26,083 nucleotides of DNA from a virus (Duplodnaviria > Caudoviricetes). Both the position numbers and the translations under genes were made by a program. The stretch is from IMG/VR virus record IMGVR_UViG_3300027323_000004, positions 1-26,083 of that record; one strand, 5' to 3'. This document shows, one piece after another, positions 5,838-26,083 of this stretch (positions within the stretch are counted from its first letter, which is position 1; each line of letters opens with the position of its first letter). The notes beneath the pieces are model-generated. The model did not search any database and was not told the DNA's origin. It saw only the letters and a list, made by a program, of their open reading frames with translations.

Positions 5838-7475
5838 ATGAGTAGCACATACGGTTTAGGTAGTGTATTAACAGGTGCATCACGCGCAATGCGTAACATT
5901 AAGGCCGATTATCGTGCTGATGAAACTTATAATCAGGGGTTAGAAGATGCAGAGCGATCACGCGAATACCAACAAAGTCGGCGTGAACGCCAGCAAGTTT
6001 TAGATGAAAGGAACGATGATTCTTATGTACGGGCTGATGTAAATTATGGCAGACAAGAAAAAACCTACCAGAGAGCGGAGATGGGAAGAAAGGTCAGAAG
6101 CGCTTTTATGATCTCTGGTGATATTTCTGGAATAATGCCACTTTATAACTCGATAGATGATGGCAACCAAATCACAAACATAGAAAAACCAAAAACCAAA
6201 AACGGTAAGTATTTAATTACTTTTCAGATAAATGGTCAAGATAAAACAGCGCCTATGAGTCGTGATGAAATCGGCATGGCTCTTACAGGCATAACAAATC
6301 CTAATGAAATAACAAGAATGGAAGCAGAGCAAGCGAAAGCAGTGCGAGCACAGGAAGACAAATTAGCGCAAATAGGTTTGCAAAATACCGGTAGTTTAGC
6401 CGTTGCCAACGTTAGAGCTGGTGGTGAGACCGGGGCAAGCAAAGCACAGGCACAACAGAATAAAATAAGTAAGGAGCGGGTAGATTATCACACAAAAAGA
6501 GGCGATATTACACAGACAGCACTAGATACAATGGGCTTTCAGTATGTATCTAAAGCTGACGCTTCTTCCCGGATAGGGGTGCTTGGTGTGGCTTACGAGA
6601 TTGCTAGAAATGGCGATAGAGCCGGTGCATCGCGTGACGCACAAAGAGACTTGCTTGTATATGCAAAACAAGCAGAAAAGATTGTAAACGAAGAGTTTGA
6701 AGAAGGTGTTGAAATAGGCGTTATCCCGGAAGATGAATGGAAAGAGGAGCGAGTTAGGCTTGTGCTGGAATCCATTGTCGATGAACGCTTAAACCAACTA
6801 CAGCAGACCGGTACAACTAACACAAAAAGCGAAACACAGCCTAAAAAACTGACGCAGGAGCAATACTATGAAAAAGCAAAAAAACTCGGTTGGCCAGACG
6901 ATATAATCCAGCAAAAAATGCAGGAAGATATTAAGGCAAATAAAGTTGAAACAAAGGCCAATAACGCTCCAATTGAAACGCCTGCGCCAGAAAATGCAGT
7001 GGCACAGGGTGGGTTAGAGCATGGTCAGACGGGTATTGACCCAGCAAAGGATACCTTGGACAAGGCTTTAGATACAACGGTTGTTGCAATGGCTGATGAT
7101 ACCGAAATTAGCGAACCAGAAAAGCCAGATCAGGGGTTATCAGGCGGGTATTCGTCTGGTATTACAAAATCAAAATCAAAGCTGGACGCAATTAAAGCAG
7201 ATATACAGGATTTATTGCCAGAGGAACCCGATTTTGGAGGGGGCATTTCTCAGATCAGAAAAAGACAGGTACACGGTAATAAGGTTAGAGGTGCGGCGCG
7301 GCAGGTCAAACAACGATTAAATAGCAGAACAGGTAATTTGAAAGGCTTGTCGCCTGAGACAGTCCGGCTTGCCTTGCTTGATAGTTCGTTAGTCAGAAAA
7401 TTAACGAAGAAAAAAATAGCCATTATTCGTAAGTATCTCAATAGTGAGAAAATCACAATTGCAAGTAATAATTAA
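5838..7475 (+). CDS. Internal virion / DNA ejection protein (medium)
   Basis: 545 aa, AAGG RBS, 'GLGSVLTGA' N-terminus and charged helical composition; assignment rests mainly on synteny. Confidence 0.55.
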   Translation: MSSTYGLGSVLTGASRAMRNIKADYRADETYNQGLEDAERSREYQQSRRERQQVLDERNDDSYVRADVNYGRQEKTYQRAEMGRKVRSAFMISGDISGIMPLYNSIDDGNQITNIEKPKTKNGKYLITFQINGQDKTAPMSRDEIGMALTGITNPNEITRMEAEQAKAVRAQEDKLAQIGLQNTGSLAVANVRAGGETGASKAQAQQNKISKERVDYHTKRGDITQTALDTMGFQYVSKADASSRIGVLGVAYEIARNGDRAGASRDAQRDLLVYAKQAEKIVNEEFEEGVEIGVIPEDEWKEERVRLVLESIVDERLNQLQQTGTTNTKSETQPKKLTQEQYYEKAKKLGWPDDIIQQKMQEDIKANKVETKANNAPIETPAPENAVAQGGLEHGQTGIDPAKDTLDKALDTTVVAMADDTEISEPEKPDQGLSGGYSSGITKSKSKLDAIKADIQDLLPEEPDFGGGISQIRKRQVHGNKVRGAARQVKQRLNSRTGNLKGLSPETVRLALLDSSLVRKLTKKKIAIIRKYLNSEKITIASNN

Positions 7476-7488
7476 AGAGGTTAAAAAA

Positions 7489-7770
7489 ATGAAATTAATA
7501 AATAATATGCTTAAAGGGTATCTTGAAAAACATGGCTATATAGTTTTTAAACCGCTTTGTGAAATACAAAAAATTGTTGAACATACAAGTGATGTAGAAG
7601 AAGTGAAGGTTGATCCGTTGTTTGAAGAAGCGTTTAGTATTGACGAAGATATTGCGATTCAACTTTATGATGCCAATGCATTAAATGCTGATCTTCAAAA
7701 AGAAATTAATGAACTTAAAAAAACCATGCATGTTGACACTGAACAAGCGATTGTTAAGTCTGCTTTGTGA
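7489..7770 (+). CDS. Hypothetical protein, paralogue of 18952-19239
   Basis: GAGG at 7477-7480 favours the ATG at 7489 (93 aa). Shares 'MK.INN.L..YLEKHGY' and 'SIDEDIA.QLYDANA.N..LQKE...LKK' with the - strand copy. Confidence 0.7.
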   Translation: MKLINNMLKGYLEKHGYIVFKPLCEIQKIVEHTSDVEEVKVDPLFEEAFSIDEDIAIQLYDANALNADLQKEINELKKTMHVDTEQAIVKSAL

Positions 7771-16800: not shown

Positions 16801-18813
16801 GTGATACGCTCAGAGAAAGCTACTGTTGGTCAAGCTATTGCTAATTTGTATATGGACGCGCCAGATCCTACGATATGGAAACTATATAAAGTAAAAACAA
16901 AGCAATCTGTTGACGCTCAGGGGGAATTGTTCGAGGAGCTGCTTGACGAGATCAGTGATATTGGCAAGTTTGCATCTAATGTAACAACGACTAAAAAAAC
17001 ACTTCGGAATGGGAAAGTGGTTAATAGCATTGATCCAGCATGGATGAATAAACCCCATATTTTTGCATTCAGAATGGGTGGCGATCAATATTATCTTGAT
17101 ATAAAAGATGAGGCACTTAACCGCCAGCTTAAAGGACTTGGTGTGCTTGAGTCAGGGCCGCTTGTCCGTGTTCTGGCTTTAGTAAATCGCTATCTTGCGG
17201 CTATATATACATCGTTTAACCCGGACTTTATATTTACAAATTCTATGCGTGATATTCAAATGGCGATTACAAATATTGCATCACAGACCGGACACCTTGA
17301 AGGTATGCACGATAATCCTGAAAAAGTGATGAAGGGACTGAAGAGTGAAGTATTAAAAAATTGGGGGCCTTCGTTAAAAGCGGTATGGATGCACGAACGC
17401 GGTGAAGGCGCTGATACAGAAGTTGGAAAATATTATAATGAAATGCGAAAAGGCGGTGGTAAGGTTGCCTTTTATTCCATGCGGGATATTGAAAGCCTAA
17501 AGGCTCGCCTGGATCGTAAAATTAAATCTGAGGGTGTGACAAAATCAACAATAAATGGTGCGCTTGATTTTGTTTCTAATCTAAACTCAGCGGTAGAAAA
17601 CGCTGTTAGATTATCAGCTTATATGGTACTGAGAAAACGCAAAATAAGCATACAGGACGCGGCTTTTGTTGTTAGAAATTTAACCGTAGACTTTAATAGA
17701 AAAGGTGAGTCGGCATCTGTGGCAAATGCATTGTGGTTATTTTACAATGCATCAATTCAGGGCGCGAGGGTGTCTATTAATGTTGGCGAAAGGCTGATTA
17801 AAAGCAACAAAGGACGAGCGTTTTTAATCGGAACAGTAGCAACAGGGTTTATGCTCGCTGAAATAAGTCGGCAAGCGCTGGGTGAGGGCGATGATGACCG
17901 TGATAAGTGGGATGCAATACCGGATTATATGAAACGCAGAAACCTACTGCTTGCATATGGCCCTGGTGATACAGACATTGTTAAATTTACATTACCTTAT
18001 GGTTTGAACTTAATCCCCAATATGGGTTACTGGCTTAATGACCTGATGCATTATGGAATTAGTGATGGAGTTAAAGGCAAGTCTCCACTCGCAGTTGCTA
18101 AAGAAGCGCTAATTTCCACTGTTTCAGCAACAAATCCAATAGGCAATGTTTATCCTACAATCATAACGCCTATTGTTGATGTTAGTATTATGAATGAGAA
18201 CTTTGCTGGGTATCAGATAAATAAAGAGCATGGGTCATTTGAGAAGCCGCGCAAGCCCGATTCTGAAACACACTATCCATCATTTAATAAATCATGGGAA
18301 AAAACTATTGCATCAACGATGAATAGTATTACTGGTGGTAATGAATATTCAGCCGGATTAATTGATGTGGCTCCTGGAACAATCCGCTACGCATGGAACT
18401 ATGTTACAGGCGGGCTTGGCGCAACAGTAGGGCGCATGGCTGCACTAGCTACAGATGCACAGACAGGCTTTGAAAATACTGAGCCTTACAGAATTCCAAT
18501 TATAAGAAACTTCACAGGTGGGCTGTCAAAATCTCAGGTTGGGCGAGATTACAGGAAAAACGTACAGGAATCGCTTGAATTTATGGAGGAAATAAAAAAT
18601 TCGACAGCAAGTGAAAGAAAGAAACTAATAAGAGAAAACCGACATAAATTTAAAATCGGCAGAATGGCTATAGCTTCAGAGAAAAAATTATCAAATATAT
18701 ATAAAATGCGTAATAGAGCCAGGGCTGCCGATAAAGATAAATTTGTTGAAAAAGCTAACAGCAGAATAAAAGGTGTTCAAAATAAATTCAATAAGGTGTT
18801 TTATGCTAACTGA
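7891..18813 (+). CDS. Giant polyvalent internal virion protein (LPD5-, LPD1-, zincin- and LPD38-like domains)
   Basis: 3,640-aa ORF (TTG 7891 or ATG 7897). 'IEDFGEKIGGSRKD' (~12080), 'FGFRGVEFGNW...GSLAHEWFHGLD...EMAARSFE' (~12980-13490), 'LRHEILAHHGL...EEVLA' (~13990), 'LFLEEVQSDWHQ' (~15340), 'VDFNRKG...LFYNASIQG...LPYG...TGGLG...IPIIRNF' (~17690-18520). Confidence 0.85.
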   Translation: MKMPENSAQASKYDSSSFFEEESSPSTDLVQYDSSGFFSNDSETDDSKNQNNAFAPYSDESNFDASLLNNLPSFEQEPVAKKTGSRGLIGEFARTIADVPTYAKGKVASVIEGDTPYAEYNRMDEWRKEAGELLEKRISEPGVNEKILFGYTAKDFRELGNNLAFSTVSMAAGLTGAIAAAPIPVPGTSWAGGGLASGVAAQRMATNEFLTSAVDVKNREREFTGKSPMTDAETKSYTKTIRGLANESGYWEAVPEAIGNVAGLKIITAPLRQFLGKNVASRLVTKLSSVYGVEFATETVTQIGQGNVAVDAGLSDKEKRSFTSPADVFEAFKEIAPATFLLTTVMGGTVGTGVYGYNRTIGDPKKAKIIIASTLEGNLELIPTKKLNTIISSAEDVFNRRKGDEKLKDAISALKGELASRGGTNKDIKQKSDNTEDITAVEGDMPVSTDIDPELVKAGNERIKARFAPDSDVSELVKADNKKIGETEKEISSIDTSDFGKPVRGAKGAAGETENSIDFNESDIEADQEDKLTLVAKNQQGIKDNNSIDFEYVDTKTGEKKAPESASDWFDAAHQIDYETPKQKERSFDELVESHNSRDVRSGLRQLRKQEKELSKGGNDAFSIIAQAGGVDRQSAIDEGVDPEDIKKLKAPVFGKTVFPHNGGRGVDDIGELLHEYGFAGEDGERLDKNAVLEILHAGINGEKTYSPEEAVAQADANATLDYIRPLIKKGESRIKDFKDYKELKEKYGVDVADFMYNNRRDNDSFEEAYNEWEATDNDLNEYENDYTEYTTSLDSVESEKISKEADALARLADLAEEKVGEAQTNAVVDALGTEGVETKDIARALYELVISEDKTNEKGQENRQEQSEPGSNARIAPAQTAPEAETIKPERAKSGNLKKKKLIDKAAHEAATSPENNLVEPATGQKEAETSNIYQLSKTSTESNNKWRNINLERTTPDKKDIKLIESVQKAKESGVKSYREAVDFVRKDLGDFIPENIENGVDGGAVQTEISNAWQYIDNQNFKKKIVETKTKLNFVVGQKIGKITPNTGKMIRGVSIDSITNDGYVVTGVLGNKRAKLTLDAVSLKRAIDRANPEGKKDSESDLLDTFFNDGNDTKNKKPIEVSDHAGNRDKDIAELNAVITFLESQHKTVSGNAPKDHKGNIEFDNGNKVNIGKLNRKKHGQVLQSIASDIKAVKGWVEKVTNGDKSLKDIKAILFENNDTLAKQWANTFNEAAKPLQSNTQTFTTEAAKQAEPTVKSETTPVTDINKSIKTETGKTQEKTKQEEAKTKESNELTATKVLDDAAITGKDRLDAISKFRSGEYTLDDLKAAYPADKTQNKETEVKTDTVDKESKTSQENKIKTGAVIDKADNKAVKSKANQETKKDDMDQVSGEKIEDFGEKIGGSRKDAWSGFREQVGKNLSQDELETLPLSKSFPEPNYKALAANGADKTALAAIKVMRDEIPTKGRTLYKKARYVEAVKLARNTANSILDSDSFADKFISGLRENENLSKLADRIDLLIEFGFPESGASLKGVTLEKVHYTIWNGEKNVTKWVVDVTAKSKESFGGMGGNIIQADTREEAIAALKKHAETIENQPKGKRVTKFDVYKYRGTEGSRGWIIGKKIGRNHADLAEGFETSAEARAYVNENQQEIEDKLEKFKAIPKHRKDVNTARLGEDYRNGKNVTAEEFADTFGFRGVEFGNWVGQEKRQQDINDAYDGLMDLAKLLDIPPKSLSLNGELGLAFGARGIGGKDAAKAHYEQDKIVINLTKKDGAGSLAHEWFHGLDNYFSRIRGEGASFVTERPRELLNKSIRPAMVARFKGISDAIKESGLPKRARILDGKRTKDYWGTMREMAARSFESYVISKLKEKDISNDYLANIVSQEYWEASEALGMEEKDSYPYAQAEELDSINGAYDEFFNEVKTKETEKGTALYSRHSVAQNRKTAPGISLKTAQDAISEFKSQHKGYPFGIKFRVYKDKEAAFGKDEVERLRREEGVTNIGGAYYGNTGEVILIASDLHNFEDALSTLRHEILAHHGLNLFFKAVKQKIIDRIKASRNERSLKKLWAEIDNDYRGQTEDIKAEEVLARIAENKLARLSKLWNDLIQMIRNFLIDKGWLTDKVTKGELIQLVQDISTSIARGADQKTFPESDLHTGLEKAQLSNEADHIFYSQMHRVLADKLQGKGTGASYAKTITAFVNKGQFKKEEYEWSGVDEWLKSNAMKKITKSDVLDYITANQIQIKEVEKGDQYEVVLTGETQYFDSLTDAKNALKRENEWIDEDSSSIDIEDDYISVYDHENEIFRADKDGGEWAYGRVYIDKADLQRGSKDDAIEEANAEVENIKEQWRGEISEEPILTEDGYGDSTKFSNYQLPGGENYTELLLVLPAKTALPRTNYKKIPPVNHEGTVSERKWHIVDGAGNLIETANNEIGANNQLNLLVESSKSRNEYHGTHYDEPNILAHVRFDERIDADGKRVLFLEEVQSDWHQGGRKKGYIKNDGMELIAFREEMKAKYGGDAWWTARNANERDKDVRLVLAANGVPNAPFKTTWPMLIMKRMIREATTRGFDKIAWTTGEQQNEQYDLSKQLDELSVLKRSDGEWIVSGSKDGSQIIQKSTTETGLKDLIGKDLAEKVIKQKKSDSKAVNVVKLKGIDLKVGGEGMKGFYDSMLPKMVNKYVKKWNSRVTGTTIETPGYALGETQAVHAIPITDKMRGSVTQGQPLFSRKGGETHIDSDSQPLTNEETWDTHETLIEKLEAKAIYRWNRIAKLQKKIHGEHNTPAQSDAIKKEATFYGKVGEGFEIIEREYLDPAMEVLKNNGLKRQDLEQWMYAVFAPERNAWVLQIDKSNPKGSGITDAEATAIKNKFSSDEQIALKQAAVHIRAMLDDNMNMLVKHGVITEKIRSTLKKKYPNYVPLQGNKEEEALLSALTGKKFDIRGTGLKRALGRVTPAENILPHAIAKAEAGVIRSEKATVGQAIANLYMDAPDPTIWKLYKVKTKQSVDAQGELFEELLDEISDIGKFASNVTTTKKTLRNGKVVNSIDPAWMNKPHIFAFRMGGDQYYLDIKDEALNRQLKGLGVLESGPLVRVLALVNRYLAAIYTSFNPDFIFTNSMRDIQMAITNIASQTGHLEGMHDNPEKVMKGLKSEVLKNWGPSLKAVWMHERGEGADTEVGKYYNEMRKGGGKVAFYSMRDIESLKARLDRKIKSEGVTKSTINGALDFVSNLNSAVENAVRLSAYMVLRKRKISIQDAAFVVRNLTVDFNRKGESASVANALWLFYNASIQGARVSINVGERLIKSNKGRAFLIGTVATGFMLAEISRQALGEGDDDRDKWDAIPDYMKRRNLLLAYGPGDTDIVKFTLPYGLNLIPNMGYWLNDLMHYGISDGVKGKSPLAVAKEALISTVSATNPIGNVYPTIITPIVDVSIMNENFAGYQINKEHGSFEKPRKPDSETHYPSFNKSWEKTIASTMNSITGGNEYSAGLIDVAPGTIRYAWNYVTGGLGATVGRMAALATDAQTGFENTEPYRIPIIRNFTGGLSKSQVGRDYRKNVQESLEFMEEIKNSTASERKKLIRENRHKFKIGRMAIASEKKLSNIYKMRNRARAADKDKFVEKANSRIKGVQNKFNKVFYAN

Positions 18814-18889
18814 AGCAATTTTTATCTATGTCGTACTATTTCTTGTCGTGGCTATTGTCCATGGTATTTCTTTGTGGCTTAATAGATGA
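18803..18889 (+). CDS. Putative 28-aa single-pass membrane peptide
   Basis: AAGGTG 4 nt before the ATG at 18803; overlaps the giant gene's stop; MLTEAIFIYVVLFLVVAIVHGISLWLNR. Too short for the ORF track. Confidence 0.4.
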   Translation: MLTEAIFIYVVLFLVVAIVHGISLWLNR

Positions 18890-18951
18890 TCTTATAAAAT
18901 CGTATCCTGCTTGCGTTATTCTATCTTGCTTGGCAGTAGCAACGGCAGGGG

Positions 18952-19239
18952 TCAATCTTTAACTTCAATATTAAGTAATTTTTTAAGAACATCAGCTTCT
19001 TTTTGCAAGACATTATTAAACGCATTGGCATCATAAAGTTGTTGTGCAATATCTTCATCTATGCTCATGGCTTCATCGACAATATCCGAATGGATTATTC
19101 CACGTAATTCAAGATGATCTTCAAATTCTGCCTGCGGTATCCGGTTAAGTATATGGTGGTACTGATCAAGGCTCGGCGCTTCGATGAAGTAGCCGTGTTT
19201 TTCGAGGTATCGCCTAAGTAGGTTGTTAATTATTTTCAT
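18952..19239 (-). CDS. Hypothetical protein, paralogue of 7489-7770
   Basis: 95 aa, ATGA-coupled to the upstream gene, with clear protein similarity to the + strand copy. Confidence 0.7.
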   Translation of the reverse strand: MKIINNLLRRYLEKHGYFIEAPSLDQYHHILNRIPQAEFEDHLELRGIIHSDIVDEAMSIDEDIAQQLYDANAFNNVLQKEADVLKKLLNIEVKD

Positions 19240-19655
19240 TGCTCACTCCACGGCTCTAAACAAGGCAACTTATCAACCTCTCGGTATTTCCCTGGTAATG
19301 TTAATACTTTACCGTTTTGTGTCCACACAGTAATAATAAAGCCACCGCCCTGGTCTGTATCCGGTAATAGCCGGTCGGTCTGGTCTGTTACCAGGCACAT
19401 TGAAAAAGGGGAGTTGGTATGATCTTCAAACAGTAATTCAATGGCTTCGCGGTTGTGTTCTGCCCATTGACCACGTGAGACAATAACCATATCAGCGGTT
19501 TTCATTTCAGTTATAAAATTCAACCAGCTATCCGGCACTAACAATCGTCCTGCCCCAGCATTCCATGATAAATAGCAAAAACCTTTTTGAGCGTGGTCGC
19601 TATCCCAGTAATTTGTATCAACTATTTCCTGACCATTGTTTCCGATTGTTATCAT
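19236..19655 (-). CDS. Conserved phage/MGE hypothetical protein
   Basis: Probable start MITIGNNGQ (ATG 19655), which removes the overlap with the HNH gene. 'TNYWDS.HA..G..YLSWNAGA.RLLVPD...ELLFED' resembles a recurrent MGE family. Confidence 0.65.
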   Translation of the reverse strand: MITIGNNGQEIVDTNYWDSDHAQKGFCYLSWNAGAGRLLVPDSWLNFITEMKTADMVIVSRGQWAEHNREAIELLFEDHTNSPFSMCLVTDQTDRLLPDTDQGGGFIITVWTQNGKVLTLPGKYREVDKLPCLEPWSEQ

Positions 19656-19689
19656 TTTCAAAAGCGCCTTATAATATTTGTTAAATAAT

Positions 19690-20301
19690 CTAAGCGTATT
19701 TCCATCGAAAGTCACCGACTTTAGACAGCTTGCGTTTACAGCATTTCGATATGCTTGAGTTGTCACATCCTGTCTCACGAAACGCTTTGTTTTGCGAGTA
19801 ATATTCTGCAATGAAATTACCGTCTAAATCCATTTGAACGACAGCTTTAAGCTTTTTTTTGTTTATTCCTGCTTTCATGTCAGCATGTCCTTTTGCCTTA
19901 TTTTCTGACCATGTAATCCATTGAATGTTGTCAAAAGTATAAGGCTTGTAATCATCAACTCTGTCAGCACTAGGCACAAAATCTTTTTTGTAACCAGATT
20001 TTACCCATTGCTTATAAAGCCGGTTGAATTTTCGTTTAGCTAACGCCCACGCCCGAAATTCATCTAATGTGTAGCACGGAACTGGGTGGTTTTTTTTCTT
20101 TGAACGGGCGCGTTGACTGTAATAAATATTCGATAATAACCGATATTTAGTATGACTTTGCTCTTTTTTCAGTTTATCAGCACATGCTTTACAGCAGCGC
20201 TGTAATCCATTTTTTTTTCTCCTATCTGGATAAAACTCCGATAACGCATTTACTTCGCGGCACTTTGCACAAATTTTAGTGATAAGATTCTTGTAGGTCA
20301 T
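19690..20301 (-). CDS. HNH-type homing endonuclease-like protein with N-terminal Zn finger and C-terminal NUMOD1 domain
   Basis: CAKC...CKAC; 'PSADRVDDYKPYTFDNIQWITWSENKAK' (beta-beta-alpha-metal-like); 'KAVVQMDLDGNFIAEYYS...A.RETG...SSISKCC...GDFRWKY' (NUMOD1). GGAG RBS. Confidence 0.75.
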   Translation of the reverse strand: MTYKNLITKICAKCREVNALSEFYPDRRKKNGLQRCCKACADKLKKEQSHTKYRLLSNIYYSQRARSKKKNHPVPCYTLDEFRAWALAKRKFNRLYKQWVKSGYKKDFVPSADRVDDYKPYTFDNIQWITWSENKAKGHADMKAGINKKKLKAVVQMDLDGNFIAEYYSQNKAFRETGCDNSSISKCCKRKLSKVGDFRWKYA

Positions 20302-20469
20302 AGCTTGTCAACTCCAAGTTGTGATTTAGGGGCAGGTAGTTATCGCTACCTGTTTCCGATTATATAATTTATGTGTTATTCTATTTCCGAACTGTATTGT
20401 AACTATTTGTTTCATATAGACGAAAAGTGACGTTTTTGACAGTAGTCAATACCATACAATCTACTTTAA

Positions 20470-20482
20470 AATCAACATTTTA
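20470..20482 (+). promoter_or_regulatory. IHF binding site, left of the att core
   Basis: AATCAA-CATT-TTA matches WATCAANNNNTTR exactly. Confidence 0.6.
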
Positions 20483-20501
20483 ACGCAGTTTGTCCTGGTA
20501 T

Positions 20502-20546
20502 TTGACATGGAAGAGGTCGGTGGTTCGAATCCACTCGTGCCTACCA
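20502..20546 (+). mobile_element. attP: attP core: 3' half of tRNA-Val(GAC), not a complete tRNA
   Basis: TTGACAT anticodon loop, T-arm GGTGG-TTCGAAT-CCACT, acceptor 3' strand CGTGCCT-A-CCA. No 5' half upstream. Lies about 70 bp past the integrase stop. Confidence 0.88.
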
Positions 20547-20550
20547 ATTA

Positions 20551-20563
20551 AATCAAAGACTTA
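20551..20563 (+). promoter_or_regulatory. IHF binding site, right of the att core
   Basis: AATCAA-AGAC-TTA matches WATCAANNNNTTR exactly. Confidence 0.65.
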
Positions 20564-20614
20564 CGTTGTTTTTGATATTTTTATTTGGCAAACTTTTTCA
20601 ATAGATTTTCCAAA

Positions 20615-21655
20615 CTACATTGAAATTTCTGTCCATTTTACTGAATCGTCGTCTAAATACACATCTGTCATGCTTTCTTTTGCATGTCCTAATAAAGCCT
20701 GAATAAATGCTTTAGAATATCCTTGTTGTTCATATTGTCTTGCTCCCAGTGATCTAATTTCATGGAAGGTTACGTTTTCTACGCCTGCCAATTTTGCATA
20801 TTTGGCAAAAGTCTTGCTGAGAAAGTCCGGTTTTACGCTGTTATCCAGTTTTTGTTTATCGTTTGCTCTACGTTTTGAATGACGATGCAGGATATAAGGG
20901 GAGAGTGGAACGGTTTTTGTGGCTTTAATAGACTTTGATAATTCAGGCCACATTAAAATTTTGAGATTAGCGGATTCTTTACCGGCTGATTTTGATTGCT
21001 GAATGTAAAAATAACTGCCTTTAATATCTGCGTAACGCATGGCACACAGATCACCACGCCGCTGCAAGCTAATCCTGGCTAATTCCATAGTGTTTTTGAA
21101 CCACTGGTCTGCTACATCATGTATTAGCTTGTAAGATACGCCTGTAAGCCGCTCTCGCTGTCTTTTAGGTGCGCGCTTACGCAAGGTTGCTTCGGCACAG
21201 TTAAATTGTACTAAGCCCTCAGAAATGGCGTATTTGAATATGTCTATCCACAGTTGACGGTGCTTGATGTAGGAATGCGGTTTAAATCTGGCTAAAAAAT
21301 CTTTCAGGCTCAATACGGTAACGTGCTGTATTGGGGGGAATTGCCCCTTGTATTGGTTTAATTTTTGTTTAATTGCCTTAATAGTTACTGGTCTATATTC
21401 TTTTGTTGGCAAATAATCTTTAACAAAATCATCTAATAGCGTGTCAAAATCTCCAGCTGTGCCTAATAAACCATAATCACACTGTTTTAATAATTGTGCG
21501 TTGGTGTCTTTTGCCAGTCTTATTGCTTCTGCGCGTGGCCGATTAACCGATATGGCACGTTTTGTAATCGGGTGAATGTATTTGAAGTAGCGACCATTAG
21601 GATAAAGGTTATCTGGCAGGTCGAGATTCCGTTTTTGTCGTCTGGGCATTGACAT
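20615..21655 (-). CDS. int: Lambda-type phage integrase (tyrosine recombinase)
   Basis: N-terminal arm-binding domain 'DLPDNLY....YFKYIHP.T'; catalytic QRRGDL, QQSKS, FHEIRSL, LLGH and DVY; adjacent to attP. Confidence 0.93.
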   Translation of the reverse strand: MSMPRRQKRNLDLPDNLYPNGRYFKYIHPITKRAISVNRPRAEAIRLAKDTNAQLLKQCDYGLLGTAGDFDTLLDDFVKDYLPTKEYRPVTIKAIKQKLNQYKGQFPPIQHVTVLSLKDFLARFKPHSYIKHRQLWIDIFKYAISEGLVQFNCAEATLRKRAPKRQRERLTGVSYKLIHDVADQWFKNTMELARISLQRRGDLCAMRYADIKGSYFYIQQSKSAGKESANLKILMWPELSKSIKATKTVPLSPYILHRHSKRRANDKQKLDNSVKPDFLSKTFAKYAKLAGVENVTFHEIRSLGARQYEQQGYSKAFIQALLGHAKESMTDVYLDDDSVKWTEISM

Positions 21656-21658
21656 AGA

Positions 21659-21853
21659 TTAACCCCTTAACATGGTGTTTTTCAAATTATCATCCGGAAC
21701 ACGCTCATTTTCGATGTGGGCGTAATAAGTGCCGGTCACGATCCTTTCCCCTGGAATCACCCCTAAGTCTATGTATCGTTTAAAAGTATTACTAGACACC
21801 TGAAATGAATCAGGCGTTTGTAAGTACTCTTGATATTTGACTTTTTTTATCAT
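21659..21853 (-). CDS. Probable excisionase (winged HTH)
   Basis: 64 aa directly upstream of int; 'SSNTFKRYIDLGVIPGERIVTGTYY' is Xis-like. Confidence 0.7.
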   Translation of the reverse strand: MIKKVKYQEYLQTPDSFQVSSNTFKRYIDLGVIPGERIVTGTYYAHIENERVPDDNLKNTMLRG

Positions 21854-21871
21854 GGCAAATATTAAATATCT

Positions 21872-22168
21872 TTATATTGCTCTAACAGGCGGCATTGATT
21901 TTCGGATACCCGCTAAAATACCAGACATGCCAATTCGTTCTTTCCACAATTCGCCATCAACAATCACGCGATACTGATCTATACGGCCAGACTTCATCAG
22001 TTCAAACAAATGCACTTCTTCGCCAAAGTCGTAATTTGTTATTAATATTGATTTTCGTAGTTCTGGTAATTCTTTAGGATACTCAGGCGTTAGTGATTCC
22101 AGGCGTATTCGCTCCTTCGCTGATCTCATTGCCGCGCACTGCTTCGCTTTTGCTGTTTGTCTGTACAT
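21872..22168 (-). CDS. Conserved phage hypothetical protein
   Basis: 98 aa; 'AAMRSAKERIRL...YP.ELPELR...YDFG...RID.YRV.VDG..W'. Confidence 0.65.
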   Translation of the reverse strand: MYRQTAKAKQCAAMRSAKERIRLESLTPEYPKELPELRKSILITNYDFGEEVHLFELMKSGRIDQYRVIVDGELWKERIGMSGILAGIRKSMPPVRAI

Positions 22169-22215
22169 TATTTACTCAGCACCTTGCAAGCTCTTCATAT
22201 TCTTCTGTTATAAAC

Positions 22216-22857
22216 CTAAAACATTGCAGCCTGTCTAGTCTCACGGTCAAACCGTTCCATAGCTGCATCGTAATAATCTTTGTCAATTTCACACCCTACG
22301 AAGTCACAGCCAAAGTAATGGGCGGCTATTGCACTGCTCATTGATCCAGCATGTGTGTCTAATATTCTCATGTCAGGCGTGGCATAGTTTTTTAAGAGCC
22401 ACTTATAAAGTTGCACAGGTTTTTGTGTTGGGTGTATTCTGTTTTCTGGTTGTTGTTTTTTAAAACCATTCCATAACCATTCAAACATCATTGCTGGCTT
22501 ATCTAATGTTGTCGATGCAAGTTCAAAACGGGAATAATTGCCAGAAGTTTTTTTATCCCAACAGATCACACCTCTTGACGGCCAAACCTGTTTAAAATAA
22601 TTAGCTCCCCATATTATTTGCTCATTAGACACTCTTTTTAGCTCTTCAAAATATTCTGTATTTGGGGGGCATTTATCCCACTCTGGACTATGGTAATTTT
22701 TATCTATTGGCGAACTCCACCTATCGCTATTAGCTGCCCCGCTTTGCCCTTTAATCCCAATGCCATAAGGCGGATCAACAATAGCCAAATCAAAGCTATT
22801 ATCAGGCTGGTTAGCCATGTACTCCATACAATCAATATTTAGTAATTCTATTGTCAT
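22216..22857 (-). CDS. DNA N6-adenine/N4-cytosine methyltransferase, beta class (cassette 1)
   Basis: 'DCMEYM...FDLAIVDPPY', 'IIWGANYF', 'HPTQKPV.LY.WLL' and 'ILDTHAGSMSS...GCEIDKDYY'. Confidence 0.93.
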   Translation of the reverse strand: MTIELLNIDCMEYMANQPDNSFDLAIVDPPYGIGIKGQSGAANSDRWSSPIDKNYHSPEWDKCPPNTEYFEELKRVSNEQIIWGANYFKQVWPSRGVICWDKKTSGNYSRFELASTTLDKPAMMFEWLWNGFKKQQPENRIHPTQKPVQLYKWLLKNYATPDMRILDTHAGSMSSAIAAHYFGCDFVGCEIDKDYYDAAMERFDRETRQAAMF

Positions 22858-22877
22858 TCTGTTATCCTAAAAACGGT

Positions 22878-22938
22878 TTATAACAAGGCAATTAAGCGCG
22901 ACGGCAAAACACGCCGCGCCTTATTTTTATCGTTAGTT
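22878..22938 (+). repeat. attC: attC-like site 1
   Basis: R'' TTATAAC - AAGGC - L'' AATTAAGC - GCGACGGC AAAACAC GCCGCG - L' CCTTATT - TTTATC - R' GTTAGTT (61 bp). Confidence 0.85.
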
Positions 22939-23106
22939 GCCTAAGCTCGCATCTTTGATTCTGCGTTTGCGAAGCCTGGTCTCATGTTTCCGCATCTCAT
23001 CCAAATCATCTTTATGCACATAAAAATCATTACGTTTAAACAAACCGCCCGCGCTTAATCTAGCGCGGCGGTCTGACTGTCTTTGTTTGTTTGTTAATGC
23101 AGTCAT
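22933..23106 (-). CDS. 57-aa basic protein, putative ribbon-helix-helix-like regulator (cassette 2); missing from the ORF track
   Basis: MTALTNKQRQSDRRARLSAGGLFKRNDFYVHKDDLDEMRKHETRLRKRRIKDASLGN*. ATGA-coupled to the upstream gene; its TAA stop lies in R' of attC1. Confidence 0.7.
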   Translation of the reverse strand: MTALTNKQRQSDRRARLSAGGLFKRNDFYVHKDDLDEMRKHETRLRKRRIKDASLGN

Positions 23107-23360
23107 TTTATTAATTTTCCGGCTCCTAACTCATTGTATCTAAACTCCATGCGAGCGCCATTTTTACCATAAGCTGTAGCATCTATTGTTTGCTTAAATC
23201 TTGTCAGTGCAGCGTCACTACTAACGTTGTCTGGTATATTAGTTATACGCCTTATCTGCAAAGATGCGCTATTAAAATCACAGGTTTCAGATCGTGGATC
23301 ACCGAGGGTTGTACAAACAGACATTATTTTTACTGTTGTTTTTACCATTATTGATTTCAT
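23103..23360 (-). CDS. Hypothetical protein (cassette 2)
   Basis: 85 aa, tightly packed between its neighbours, with a GGAAG RBS-like sequence upstream. Confidence 0.6.
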   Translation of the reverse strand: MKSIMVKTTVKIMSVCTTLGDPRSETCDFNSASLQIRRITNIPDNVSSDAALTRFKQTIDATAYGKNGARMEFRYNELGAGKLIK

Positions 23361-23362
23361 TT

Positions 23363-23800
23363 TTAATCTCTTCCTTCGATTGCTGCTTTGTAACCAGCGC
23401 TATTTTTTATGCGCTCATGCTTTTCAGTTTCTTCGCGTTCGTATTCTGCTTTTTCTTTTTCAACTTCTTCTGGGTATTTTTCAGCCCACTCTTTTTGAGC
23501 TTCTTCAAGAGCCATTCTTGCTTTTATTATCCGGCTAGGGTCTGAGTAGCTAGCATTTTCGGCATTGTATAACTCACTCATTGCTTTGCCGATTATTTGA
23601 CTATGGTCTTTTTCTGTCTGAGTACGCTCATCAATGTTTTCGATTTTGTATGATAAGCACTCGCCTTTGCCTGCTTTAAGCGTTGCTGCTTTTATCTGAT
23701 CAAACATTGGATCAGATATGCCACCAGGAAATTTATCAGTTATATTAATAATCTCAGTATGGCCTTCAGGTCTTTTGATTTTTATAGTTGTTTTTCTCAT
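23363..23800 (-). CDS. Hypothetical charged protein (first gene of cassette 2)
   Basis: A strong RBS GGAGAAGGA favours the ATG at 23800 (MRKTTIKIKRPEG..., 145 aa) over the tracked TTG start. Confidence 0.7.
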   Translation of the reverse strand: MRKTTIKIKRPEGHTEIINITDKFPGGISDPMFDQIKAATLKAGKGECLSYKIENIDERTQTEKDHSQIIGKAMSELYNAENASYSDPSRIIKARMALEEAQKEWAEKYPEEVEKEKAEYEREETEKHERIKNSAGYKAAIEGRD

Positions 23801-23847
23801 ATCCTTCTCCGTTTTTTGGTTTCGCCCTTTGCTCAACCTATAACTAT

Positions 23848-23876
23848 ATATTACTCCTGTTACCGGTAACAGTCAA
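23848..23876 (-). promoter_or_regulatory. Sigma70-like promoter with a 16-bp palindromic operator
   Basis: TTGACT-N17-TAATAT on the - strand; perfect palindrome CTGTTACCGGTAACAG (23857-23872) covers the spacer and the edge of the -35. Confidence 0.72.
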
Positions 23877-23920
23877 GAGATAAACGCCAAATAATAGAAA
23901 TAAGTTACAAATAAAACGGC

Positions 23921-23992
23921 AACTAACAAAACGCTGCACCGGAATTTTGTTACGCTGCGCTTCACAAAATCCCGTGAGCTGCATCGTTATGC
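23921..23992 (+). repeat. attC: attC-like site 2
   Basis: AACTAAC - AAAAC - GCTGCACC - GGAATTTTGT...ACAAAATCC - CGTGAGC - TGCATC - GTTATGC (72 bp). Confidence 0.85.
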
Positions 23993-24304
23993 GTCAGGAA
24001 CATTTACCGTATGCTCAAAGTCAATGTAGTCGCCACAATGTTTATCTCCACTGCATAAACACGCACCTGGATGATTTAAACGACCACGCTTTGAGCAAAA
24101 TTGCACCATCGCCGGGAGTGTCGGGTCATACGAAACATCGCGCAACCAAAATACCTGGCCGTTAGCAGTGGCCTGTTTCTTGGCTATATAATTATCAGTA
24201 AAATCAAGGAATTTACAGGCATTGAAACGCATAACAAGGCATTCAACTGGACTTGCTGTTTCAGTGGGCTTTTTAACTTCTGTGTTTTCGTTCATGTTCG
24301 TCAT
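23987..24304 (-). CDS. Cys-rich hypothetical protein (cassette 3) whose start lies inside attC3
   Basis: GGAG at 24314-24317, then ATG 24304 (MTNMNENTE...); TAA stop in R' of attC2. Confidence 0.65.
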   Translation of the reverse strand: MTNMNENTEVKKPTETASPVECLVMRFNACKFLDFTDNYIAKKQATANGQVFWLRDVSYDPTLPAMVQFCSKRGRLNHPGACLCSGDKHCGDYIDFEHTVNVPDA

Positions 24305-24359
24305 GTTATTTATCTCCAGCGCTCGCATTCCGCAAGCAAGTTAATTTAATCGGTTATAA
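24229..24359 (+). repeat. attC: attC-like site 3 (long)
   Basis: GCATAAC - AAGGC - ATTCAACT - GGACTTGC...GCAAGCA - AGTTAAT - TTAATCG - GTTATAA (131 bp). L''/L' pair perfectly with the canonical extra C. Confidence 0.82.
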
Positions 24360-24668
24360 CTTAACACCCAAATCATCAGCCATCATGTTGCCATTTATGT
24401 CTGTAAACCCATCAATCCATGTAAACAGCTCACCGATTGCCGGACCCTCGTCATCAAATAATCCGTAATCTGACATTAATGATCTTGCTGCTTTACATAT
24501 ATCAGTGCAATCATCGCACTGTTTAAATGTCATAAAATCACCATCCCATTTACCAGTGATGTTTAAATATTTATCACCTGGCTTTATTGTTTTATGACAC
24601 TCGCAGCATTTATGCTCAATTCTTGCTGTCGGCGTTGTTTCGTTGTAAATTGTCGGTAAATCGCACAT
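24354..24668 (-). CDS. Phage Zn-finger protein (cassette 4)
   Basis: 'TARIEHKCCECHKTIKPGDKY....GKWDGDF.TFKQCDDC'; TAA stop in R' of attC3. Confidence 0.75.
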   Translation of the reverse strand: MCDLPTIYNETTPTARIEHKCCECHKTIKPGDKYLNITGKWDGDFMTFKQCDDCTDICKAARSLMSDYGLFDDEGPAIGELFTWIDGFTDINGNMMADDLGVKL

Positions 24669-24683
24669 GAATTTAATCCAAAG

Positions 24684-24771
24684 TTATAACAATAAAATTA
24701 ACGCAGACCGCCCATACGCTGTTTGGTTTCAACCAGGCTGTGCAGCGGCTGGTTATTAAAAGTCGTTATGT
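24684..24771 (+). repeat. attC: attC-like site 4
   Basis: TTATAAC - AATAA - AATTAACG - CAGACCGC...TGGTT TC AACCA...GCGGCT - GGTTATT - AAAAGTC - GTTATGT (88 bp). Confidence 0.8.
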
Positions 24772-25017
24772 TGTAACAATTCCGCCGCAGTACGGGCAGT
24801 AAACAACGCCATTATCAAGTATTTCACCACCCTCAAAATTCCAGCCATTGCCACACGTTGTTTGGTAATAACCATCGTTATCAAATGTCCAATTGCATTC
24901 ACGAGCCAGTTCGTCAACAGCCTCCCTTAGTATGTTTGCTGTTTTTCTGCTTGCTACATGCGGAGCCATTCCCCTGACTAAATCTCTACCAATATTTACA
25001 ATTTCAATTCTGTTCAT
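24766..25017 (-). CDS. Phage Zn-ribbon protein (cassette 5)
   Basis: 'CNW.....YYQTTCG...F...........YCPYCGG'; GGAG RBS; TAA stop in R' of attC4. Confidence 0.75.
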   Translation of the reverse strand: MNRIEIVNIGRDLVRGMAPHVASRKTANILREAVDELARECNWTFDNDGYYQTTCGNGWNFEGGEILDNGVVYCPYCGGIVTT

Positions 25018-25031
25018 AATTTAAACTCCAA

Positions 25032-25105
25032 ACATAACAAGGCGCATTAAGTCGGACATTTTGTCCGCTGCGCTCCCAAAATTCCGCTTATGCGCGACGT
25101 TATAT
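25032..25105 (+). repeat. attC: attC-like site 5
   Basis: ACATAAC - AAGGCG - CATTAAGT - CGGACATTTTG...CAAAATTCC - GCTTATG - CGCGAC - GTTATAT (74 bp). Confidence 0.85.
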
Positions 25106-25480
25106 GGCTATAGGTAATTCGCCGTCAGGCAAAATCCACAGCCAGTAAATATTGTGGTAATCCTGCACTTTTGTAACTGCTGGATAAAATTCGACTCCAG
25201 TAGCGTCGTCACCAAACAATTCGTTTTTTATCGCCTGCATTTCGCGCCAGTGGTTGGGTATCGGTTTATCATCATGCCGCTGCACCATTGCTTTTATTGC
25301 AGTTATTCCGCCAGTCATATTCGCGTTATCATCAATCATCACAACATATCGGTTGTTCTTAAATGCTCTCGTCATCCAATCAGGATGGCTTTGCAAATTC
25401 AAATCAACAGGCAACAATTTACCTCTCGGTTTTTTCAGTAGCTTTCGTGCTGCTGATTTTTGTGCTTTATTTCTACTCAT
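25100..25480 (-). CDS. Conserved phage protein, DUF7694-like (cassette 6)
   Basis: 'QRHDDKPI..HWREMQAIKNELFG....GVEFYP......D..NIYWLW'; TAA stop in R' of attC5. Confidence 0.7.
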   Translation of the reverse strand: MSRNKAQKSAARKLLKKPRGKLLPVDLNLQSHPDWMTRAFKNNRYVVMIDDNANMTGGITAIKAMVQRHDDKPIPNHWREMQAIKNELFGDDATGVEFYPAVTKVQDYHNIYWLWILPDGELPIAI

Positions 25481-25491
25481 GTAAAATCACC

Positions 25492-25516
25492 ATATAACAA
25501 GGCGGTCAACTCGGAC
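25492..25516 (+). repeat. attC-like half site 6 (left arm only)
   Basis: ATATAAC - AAGGC - GGTCAACT - CGGAC, with no correctly spaced L'/R' downstream. Confidence 0.7.
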
Positions 25517-25527
25517 ATTCATTCTCA

Positions 25528-25716
25528 TTAAAATGCTCCTGTAGCTATTTTTTGTACGCTAGACCCTGGTACTCCGGTTATTCGGCTTATGCCTTCAAGC
25601 GTCAAAAATCCATGATTATTTACTTTACCAGTGCCTCGGCAAAACCAGTATAAATACGTAACCAGGCAACGGGTTGCTCTGCTGTGTTTTAGTCTGTTAT
25701 TTGTGTGATTAGTCAT
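25528..25716 (-). CDS. Small HTH-like protein
   Basis: 'TLEGISRITGVPGSSVQKIATG' is HTH-like; TAATG-coupled to the upstream gene. Confidence 0.55.
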   Translation of the reverse strand: MTNHTNNRLKHSRATRCLVTYLYWFCRGTGKVNNHGFLTLEGISRITGVPGSSVQKIATGAF

Positions 25717-26081
25717 TAAGCAGCCTTATCCTGTTGCAGTTTTATATACAATTCATCAACCGCTTTTAGCAGTTTCTTTTGTACGCGAAGCGCCACCGCT
25801 TTCAGTTTTTTATCCTCAACTAACGGCATGTTTTGTATAGCTGCTTGGACATCATCAGCGTAATCACAAAGCACCCGTTCCGGGGACAATTCATTTGGTT
25901 TTTCAATATGCTTTTTAATTAATTCTGGTTGCGCATCTACTGGCTGCTCAATACGTTTCGCTTCAACACGTTCTGCTTCAAGTCTTTCAGCTTCAATACG
26001 CAGATCTTCAACACGTTCTGCTTCAAGTCTTTCAGCTTCAATACGCAGATCTTCAACACGTTCTGCTTCAAGTCTTTCAGC
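25716..26081 (-). CDS. C-terminal part of a coiled-coil phage protein (5'-truncated by the window edge; not in the ORF track)
   Basis: Open frame (AERLEAERVEDLRIE)x2-AERLEAERVEAKRIEQPVDAQ...KLQQDKAA*. Confidence 0.7.
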   Translation of the reverse strand, partial: AERLEAERVEDLRIEAERLEAERVEDLRIEAERLEAERVEAKRIEQPVDAQPELIKKHIEKPNELSPERVLCDYADDVQAAIQNMPLVEDKKLKAVALRVQKKLLKAVDELYIKLQQDKAA

Positions 26082-26083
26082 TT
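25961..26083. repeat. Perfect 45-bp in-frame tandem repeat (at least 2.7 copies)
   Basis: Unit CTTCAACACGTTCTGCTTCAAGTCTTTCAGCTTCAATACGCAGAT starts at 25961, 26006 and 26051, with a 15-bp sub-period. Confidence 0.95.

Follow-up and report, generated by a model that had tools for sequence, protein, structure and literature searches.

A phage array of integron-type cassettes with reversed genes, headed by an attI-like dock and lacking an integron integrase

Clusters of attC sites lacking an integrase (CALINs) have been published from phages as well as from bacteria: the accessible part of Qi et al. 2023 (PMC9892861) reports 17 phage CALINs in 10,705 genomes, often with a DNA methyltransferase, and recombination by IntI1 of five of the six phage attC sites tested. 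For CALINs in general, the accessible part of Cury 2016 (PMC4889954) names action in trans as a possible origin and states that a search for attI was not possible. We here analyse such a cluster in IMG/VR record IMGVR_UViG_3300027323_000004, a Caudoviricetes sequence of 26,083 nucleotides (the window, whose coordinates are used throughout). With five attC sites in 2.2 kb and no IntI in the window or in L001, an overlapping contig that adds ~5.6 kb (100% identity over the 15,466 nt shared), the region is a real phage CALIN of the published kind, likewise an intI-less attC cluster in a phage early region; a first-pass annotation of this DNA had taken such clusters to be described in bacteria and rare in phages, but phage clusters are published together with IntI1 assays. 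What we have not found in print is reversed genes as the rule in phages, nor a conserved platform of attI and a small gene that phages have in common with chromosomes. We propose that the region is an array of six integron-type cassettes with reversed genes, headed by an attI-like dock and a small gene and without an IntI, quite probably loaded and reshuffled in trans by the IntI of a host.

Five full attC sites of 61-131 bp lie at 22878-22938, 23921-23992, 24229-24359, 24684-24771 and 25032-25105, where the first-pass annotation had placed them, and two methods agree on all five. An architecture scan of both window strands lifts these sites alone above threshold; a covariance model built from 38 attC bottom strands taken outside the window, from metagenome contigs as well as bacterial genomes (chosen from 60 found by our own scanner, whose bias the model inherits), returns them as the only window matches below E 0.5. 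The attC sites of cassettes 1 to 5 score 45.0, 40.2, 25.7, 35.0 and 33.0 bits, with rough E-values from 1.1e-9 to 1e-4, and the next match reaches 11.3 bits. Each shows R'' and R' cores with AAC and GTT, paired L boxes, extrahelical bases on the L'' arm and a length within the 57-141 bp range. All five covariance matches fall on the minus strand, which makes the recombinogenic bottom strand the one that codes for the cassette proteins. The bottom strand also folds more stably than the top at every full site, but wins against dinucleotide shuffles at only two of the five (z of -2.95 and -3.29; the rest -0.87 to -1.2), and folding energy alone is weak evidence for attC sites. Terminator-like repeats were considered and rejected on account of the R''/R' pairing and the covariance scores; an Rfam scan of 18800-26083 gave a single, unrelated sub-threshold match, and a comparison of the fifth attC with plasmids gave just four partial matches (77-80%). 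The sixth site, at 25492, had been taken for a half site. A site is indeed there, with R'' and L'' intact, but it can be read as a degenerate full attC of 101 nt (25492-25592, seen in L001) whose R' lacks the crossover G; it scores 6.1 bits (E 2.7) on the covariance model.

The joints between these sites mark the units as cassettes. The R'' of each unit pairs 7/7 with the R' that opens its own cassette in all six units, the lone GTTATAA at 22207 included, and only 4-6/7 with the R' of its own hairpin; the full total of 42/42 is reached by 2 of 720 permutations. Since such a match between R'' and a unit's own R' is what the joining of a circle at G^TT leaves, the units are cassettes of integron type, as had been supposed from their architecture. 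Read on the plus strand, with their attC sites in the order given above, cassette 1 (22208..22932) carries a DNA methyltransferase gene (22216-22857, minus strand) of N6/N4 type (PF01555); cassette 2 (22933..23986) three minus-strand genes of 57, 85 and 157 aa; cassette 3 (23987..24353) a Cys-rich open reading frame (ORF) of 102-113 aa, depending on start choice; cassettes 4 (24354..24765) and 5 (24766..25099) Zn-finger-like genes of 104 and 83 aa, both on the minus strand; and cassette 6 (25100..25592), which is probably fixed in place, a DUF7694 gene (25100-25480, minus strand; PF24746) followed by the degenerate attC. Of the identities first given to this cargo, the methyltransferase and DUF7694 are borne out by family matches, while the Zn-finger-like pair matches unnamed PHROGs only.

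All eight cassette genes lie on the attC bottom strand, opposite to textbook cassettes, in which the top strand is usual though not obligatory. A TAA stop inside the R' box ends five of the six cassettes, and the methyltransferase stops 3 nt from its R' box; in cassette 3, the long attC of the unit itself holds the start codon and the ribosome site of the gene. A part of this attC (24229-24328) encodes ~25 N-terminal residues of the cassette 3 protein, with similar leaders in loci L051 and L055. Cassette 2 is headed by a promoter-like site (23876-23848, minus strand) that contains a CTGT-N8-ACAG palindrome (23857-23872, single copy in the window), which matches the LexA-box consensus; the three-gene cassette may be SOS-controlled or autoregulated. 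Its promoter region (23814-23855) also occurs in another sequence context in read sets X2 and X4, and in run X6 one contig leaves the window sequence at 23804 in a loose end resembling a type I-E CRISPR repeat, which may point to a spacer of a host directed at cassette 2.

The same kinds of gene occur free of cassettes. In other viral contigs, no attC lies within 1.5 kb of three such relatives, one of the DUF7694 protein (60% identity) and two of the 104-aa protein (47% and 37%), and a 71%-identical methyltransferase is carried in the reversed array of contig L014. A nucleotide search of the array against 50,697 annotated phage records returned short methyltransferase matches only, and for cassette 5 no relative was found outside this phage. 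Judged by sequence, the cassettes carry early genes of an ordinary phage kind, in agreement with the first-pass annotation.

Reversal is not confined to this phage. Behind docks of the type described below, viral cassettes are reversed in 16 cases, forward in 2, open both ways in 8 and uncalled in 7 (n=33, four of them from this phage), as against 52 forward, none reversed, 3 both and 10 uncalled among cassettes of chromosome type (n=65, in which soil contigs were assigned as chromosomal by dock type and neighbours). Unclassified metagenome contigs gave 9 forward, 8 reversed and 15 unclear. Furthermore, in ten other viral contigs found by a generic attC pattern, a reversed ORF stops in R' at 26 of 36 sites and a forward ORF stops in R'' at 3. 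Orientation calls by longest ORF were discarded as unreliable in GC-rich DNA.

To the left of the array stands the attI-like dock (22183..22213, plus strand), in which the palindrome CTTGCAAG (22183-22190) is followed by a putative L box (22195-22201), a 5-nt spacer and the crossover G^TT at 22207, with 16 nt between palindrome and G^TT. Diverging from it is a 98-aa gene (21872..22168, minus strand), in the place that intI has in an integron. A search with this ORF gave 137 loci, of which 102 distinct ones were left after 14 with less than 70 nt upstream and 21 duplicates were removed; a palindrome of the CTTGCAAG type lies 15 or 16 nt before GTT in 91 of the 102 under a strict pattern, and in 100 under a relaxed one. 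Dock loci are conserved left of G^TT and not right of it. Over ~1 kb to the left of the dock, six contigs agree at 99.9-100% identity, yet each has a different first cassette, and the array of L128 is that of L131 plus one 725-bp cassette, added exactly at the dock G^TT; the comparison of relatives for change at these junctions, which the first-pass annotation had proposed, thus finds gain and exchange there. Across docks, 161 distinct cassettes (the window's five included) comprise 126 that match their own R' 7/7 and 16 that match the downstream R' 7/7. The dock has the marks of an attI: it appears as a fixed site for the entry of first cassettes, has L and R boxes and is free of a hairpin. 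We rejected the opposite geometry, in which crossover would occur at R'' of the other strand, since no hairpin is present at the left end, the cassette 3 gene starts within the attC to its right, and shared pieces start at R'. The 14 nt that open the first cassette of L131 also open L190. A reverse search with the DNA motif gave 38 matches, at 35 viral loci; the gene is present at 6, a matching first attC at 10, and both at 4. Many of these matches are probably due to chance.

The module of dock and 98-aa gene also occurs in the chromosomes of Thalassotalea, Pseudoalteromonas, Shewanella and Glaciecola and in Burkholderiales metagenome-assembled genomes (MAGs), with up to four matches per genome amid unrelated neighbours, so the platform is not phage-specific, as against the phage-specific cassette pool suggested at first. 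Neighbours at most dock loci are unrelated, housekeeping or NinG/RusA-like genes for example. In two Thalassotalea genomes (G001 and G008), the dock and the resident attI at intI have the identical core, CTAATAAGCTG^TT, and chromosomal dock arrays and true integrons have the same attC families. The true attI sites of this marine family, for their part, have two or three genome-specific palindromes directly before the L box (L150-L152, L162, L163, L225-L250). Because the dock core equals a resident attI in two genomes and the attC families are common to true integrons, the evidence favours a host IntI acting in trans.

How such an enzyme would serve a phage can be sketched from the layout. A host IntI would recombine the folded attC bottom strand with the dock, and newcomers would enter at 22207, which would be the far end of the leftward early transcript, farthest from the leftward promoter. 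Genes in reversed orientation would be kept, as the leftward transcript reads only them, and the array would need no cassette promoter (Pc) of its own because its genes would be read from that transcript. A promoter scan gave 12 sites against 12.5 expected by chance, with no plus-strand promoter-like match between 21800 and the dock. In lambda the origin lies in the initiator region. If the same is true here, the bottom strand would be the lagging-strand template of a fork from that region, a layout that would favour excision. These steps are in line with the accessible part of PMC5371416, which describes recombination by IntI between a folded attC bottom strand and a double-stranded attI, at higher rates when the bottom strand is on the lagging-strand template.

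Several observations weigh against this proposal. The dock palindrome was found at none of 36 true intI loci, and the L box of the window is far from that of Thalassotalea. Four of ten dock-bearing genomes have no IntI over the cut-off (one has split IntI matches, two are MAGs), and in a family sample IntI occurs in 6 of 7 module-bearing genomes against a base rate of 146 of 201, which is no difference. At six viral loci (L174, L177, L178, L190, L191, L208), dock and cassette are present while the 98-aa gene is absent within 520 nt; it is thus dispensable in cis. The loci behind the orientation counts are related, hence those counts are not independent; the rearranged joints in read sets, described below, are single low-depth contigs or may come from co-occurring phages that share cassettes. 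Finally, the 98-aa protein sits on a 58,876-nt contig, as compared with the ~31.6 kb of phage examined, about half of the genome, and a recombinase may be encoded elsewhere in it.

That last point feeds the best of the alternatives, in which a recombinase of the phage itself, either the resident lambda-type integrase or an enzyme from the unseen half, perhaps aided by the 98-aa protein, moves the cassettes without any host IntI. A tyrosine recombinase gene does lie 550 nt from the dock (20615..21655, minus strand), an integrase-sized gene follows the small gene in L015, L018, L051 and L055 too, and some dock-bearing genomes have no IntI that we could see. The resident enzyme, however, is a lambda-type integrase and not an IntI: its 346 aa include an arm-binding domain (PF00589 and PF09003), it has no TIGR02249 match, and it agrees with an IntI profile built from 36 IntI proteins at 56 of 323 positions (7.9 bits). 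Searches with TIGR02249, with the IntI profile and of six-frame translations found no IntI in the window and L001, upholding the first-pass annotation for the ~31.6 kb covered. Neighbours are, furthermore, unrelated at most dock loci, and we regard a phage enzyme as unlikely; between the two agents named at the outset, a host IntI or an unrecognised recombinase, it is the former that the evidence favours.

A second alternative makes the array a relic: a complete integron would have been captured once and have lost its intI, leaving a static array and the 98-aa gene as a passenger. The degenerate last attC would fit such decay, as would the single cassette order shared by the well-covered runs X2, X4, X6 and X7, and intI loss is among the CALIN origins listed in the accessible part of PMC4889954. 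Entire cassettes at the dock nevertheless distinguish near-identical phages, reversed genes of phage type are not to be expected in a captured bacterial array, and no IntI or remnant stands beside any dock locus among 196 loci searched, many of which have short flanks; the single full IntI found was in L004, which is not a dock locus. A relic is therefore rather improbable. The L004 contig comes from a viral collection, and its full IntI (E 1e-86) adjoins an attC. Least credible, and to our minds very improbable, are chance insertions at a secondary site of attG type with a palindrome that is merely the operator or ribosome region of the 98-aa gene: IntI is known to insert cassettes at short GWT sites across genomes (accessible part of bioRxiv 10.1101/2022.09.11.507474) and the palindrome copies do overlap the upstream region of the gene, but the crossover keeps a distance of 15 or 16 nt to the palindrome at 91 loci across several bacterial groups, and in two genomes the dock core is identical to a true attI, which a three-base consensus cannot yield.

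Some read sets contain joints that differ from those of the window. In run X9, one contig at depth 3.6 connects the fourth attC at 24764 with 22207, which is either a circle of cassettes 1-4 or another order, and another contig at depth 6 runs from cassette 3 into a different methyltransferase allele. In run X4, which may be the source sample, cassette 5 forms a separate piece (24764-25102) at depth 109 against 58-71 in neighbouring pieces, there are loose ends at 24353, 24764 and 23988, and cassette 4 shows an allele with nine substitutions and a contig break at 24353. Runs X10 and X11, which contain just small shares, were left out of account for habitat. The well-covered runs X2, X4, X6 and X7 otherwise keep the cassette order of the window. 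A near-identical second copy of the fourth attC (24684-24757), with other flanks and at similar depth, was seen in runs X2, X6 and X7; perhaps it belongs to a second array in the unseen part of the phage.

The small gene beside the dock belongs to an unnamed family of 238 clusters at 50% identity. It is protein-coding by its substitution pattern, third codon positions varying most, and the family has conserved Arg, Asp and Tyr residues. The predicted structure is a helix, four strands and a helix, with a predicted local distance difference test (pLDDT) score of 82. Neither 28 aligned members nor the family domain in 31 more had a Pfam match, and the joining of the domain to HNH, UbiA and an integrase tail seems incidental. 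The protein had no sequence match in PDB and no Foldseek match in viral or PDB libraries; Atlas matches were 'hypothetical' only, and a wide fold search reached at best Z 4.5 (root-mean-square deviation 2.3 over 48 residues), not above background. An AP2-like or arm-binding-like fold was considered from topology and set aside, as the fold searches did not support this guess. The weakest part of our proposal, whose chances we put at about even and which no family or fold match supports, is that the protein would act as regulator or helper by binding to the dock palindromes. A bolder idea, which we find on balance doubtful, would be a widespread 'satellite integron' common to phages and chromosomes, in which an attI site and a small palindrome-binding protein recruit or gate the host IntI and in which phages hold a mirror-image pool of their own early genes. 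Should it be true, phage early regions would be a place where new cassettes arise.

The accessible text of PMC9892861 makes no remark on genes opposite to attC and names attI only for an intI-bearing Shewanella prophage. Of its arrays, TJE1 is in canonical orientation by our covariance model (3 sites) and MW202573 is reversed (3 sites and a weak one; first 30 kb searched); both are without the 98-aa gene and the dock. The sedentary chromosomal integrons of Alteromonadales share attC families with the dock arrays and have the same layout of palindromes, L box, spacer and G^TT, and their intI diverges from attI as the 98-aa gene does from the dock. In a complete integron intI would stand beside attI; at the dock the 98-aa gene has that place, and the nearest recombinase is lambda-type. 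The platform differs from these integrons also in its palindrome and in occurring several times per chromosome at unrelated places, and the phage arrays in the reversed orientation of their genes, whose reading direction is towards the dock. Genes on the bottom strand are the reverse of the layout in Figure 1 of PMC5371416, as far as that source is accessible. An IntI encoded elsewhere has likewise been proposed for bacterial CALINs, for single attC sites lacking an integrase (SALINs) and for attG insertions (PMC4889954; bioRxiv 10.1101/2022.09.11.507474); in the accessible parts of these sources, the bacterial sites are short and unconserved, whereas the dock is conserved, has its own gene and heads clusters. 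The accessible part of PMC13323075 adds nothing on phages, and a literature search from which most subscription papers were absent turned up no mention of this dock or of reversed cassettes in phages.

If our proposal holds, a dedicated and searchable dock module, rather than decay, would be the origin of part of the unexplained intI-less cassette clusters. It suggests that phages make use of an integron enzyme of the host in diversifying their early genes, among them a methyltransferase of a restriction-blocking kind. Cargo genes that exist both free and in cassette form bear on how cassettes are made, a process that the accessible part of PMC4889954 states to be unknown. A 98-aa family tied to attI would, in addition, offer a candidate for an accessory protein of integrons.

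The window belongs to a lambdoid temperate phage, with structural genes on the plus strand and early genes on the minus strand. In lambda, the stretch between exonuclease and integrase holds accessory early genes. Here, a 64-aa ORF (21659..21853, minus strand), which has no family match, occupies the excisionase position, from which alone its function would follow, and the 3' end of a RecE-like exonuclease gene lies at 25716..26083 (minus strand), continued in L001. The extension in L001 encodes the RecE-like exonuclease, RecT, CI- and Cro-like repressors and a replication initiator; because it runs the exonuclease gene into recT, cI, cro and the initiator, the array can be assigned to the exo-xis part of a lambdoid early operon. 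The exonuclease gene includes a 15-bp unit with a 45-bp period that encodes a charged repeat (window 25933-26083; L001 5506-5695). Far from the array, a gene for a 3640-aa polyvalent protein with LPD5, LPD1 and LPD38 domains has on either side a small ORF (7444-7770 and 18952-19239), and the two are related, with 78% identity over 100 nt.

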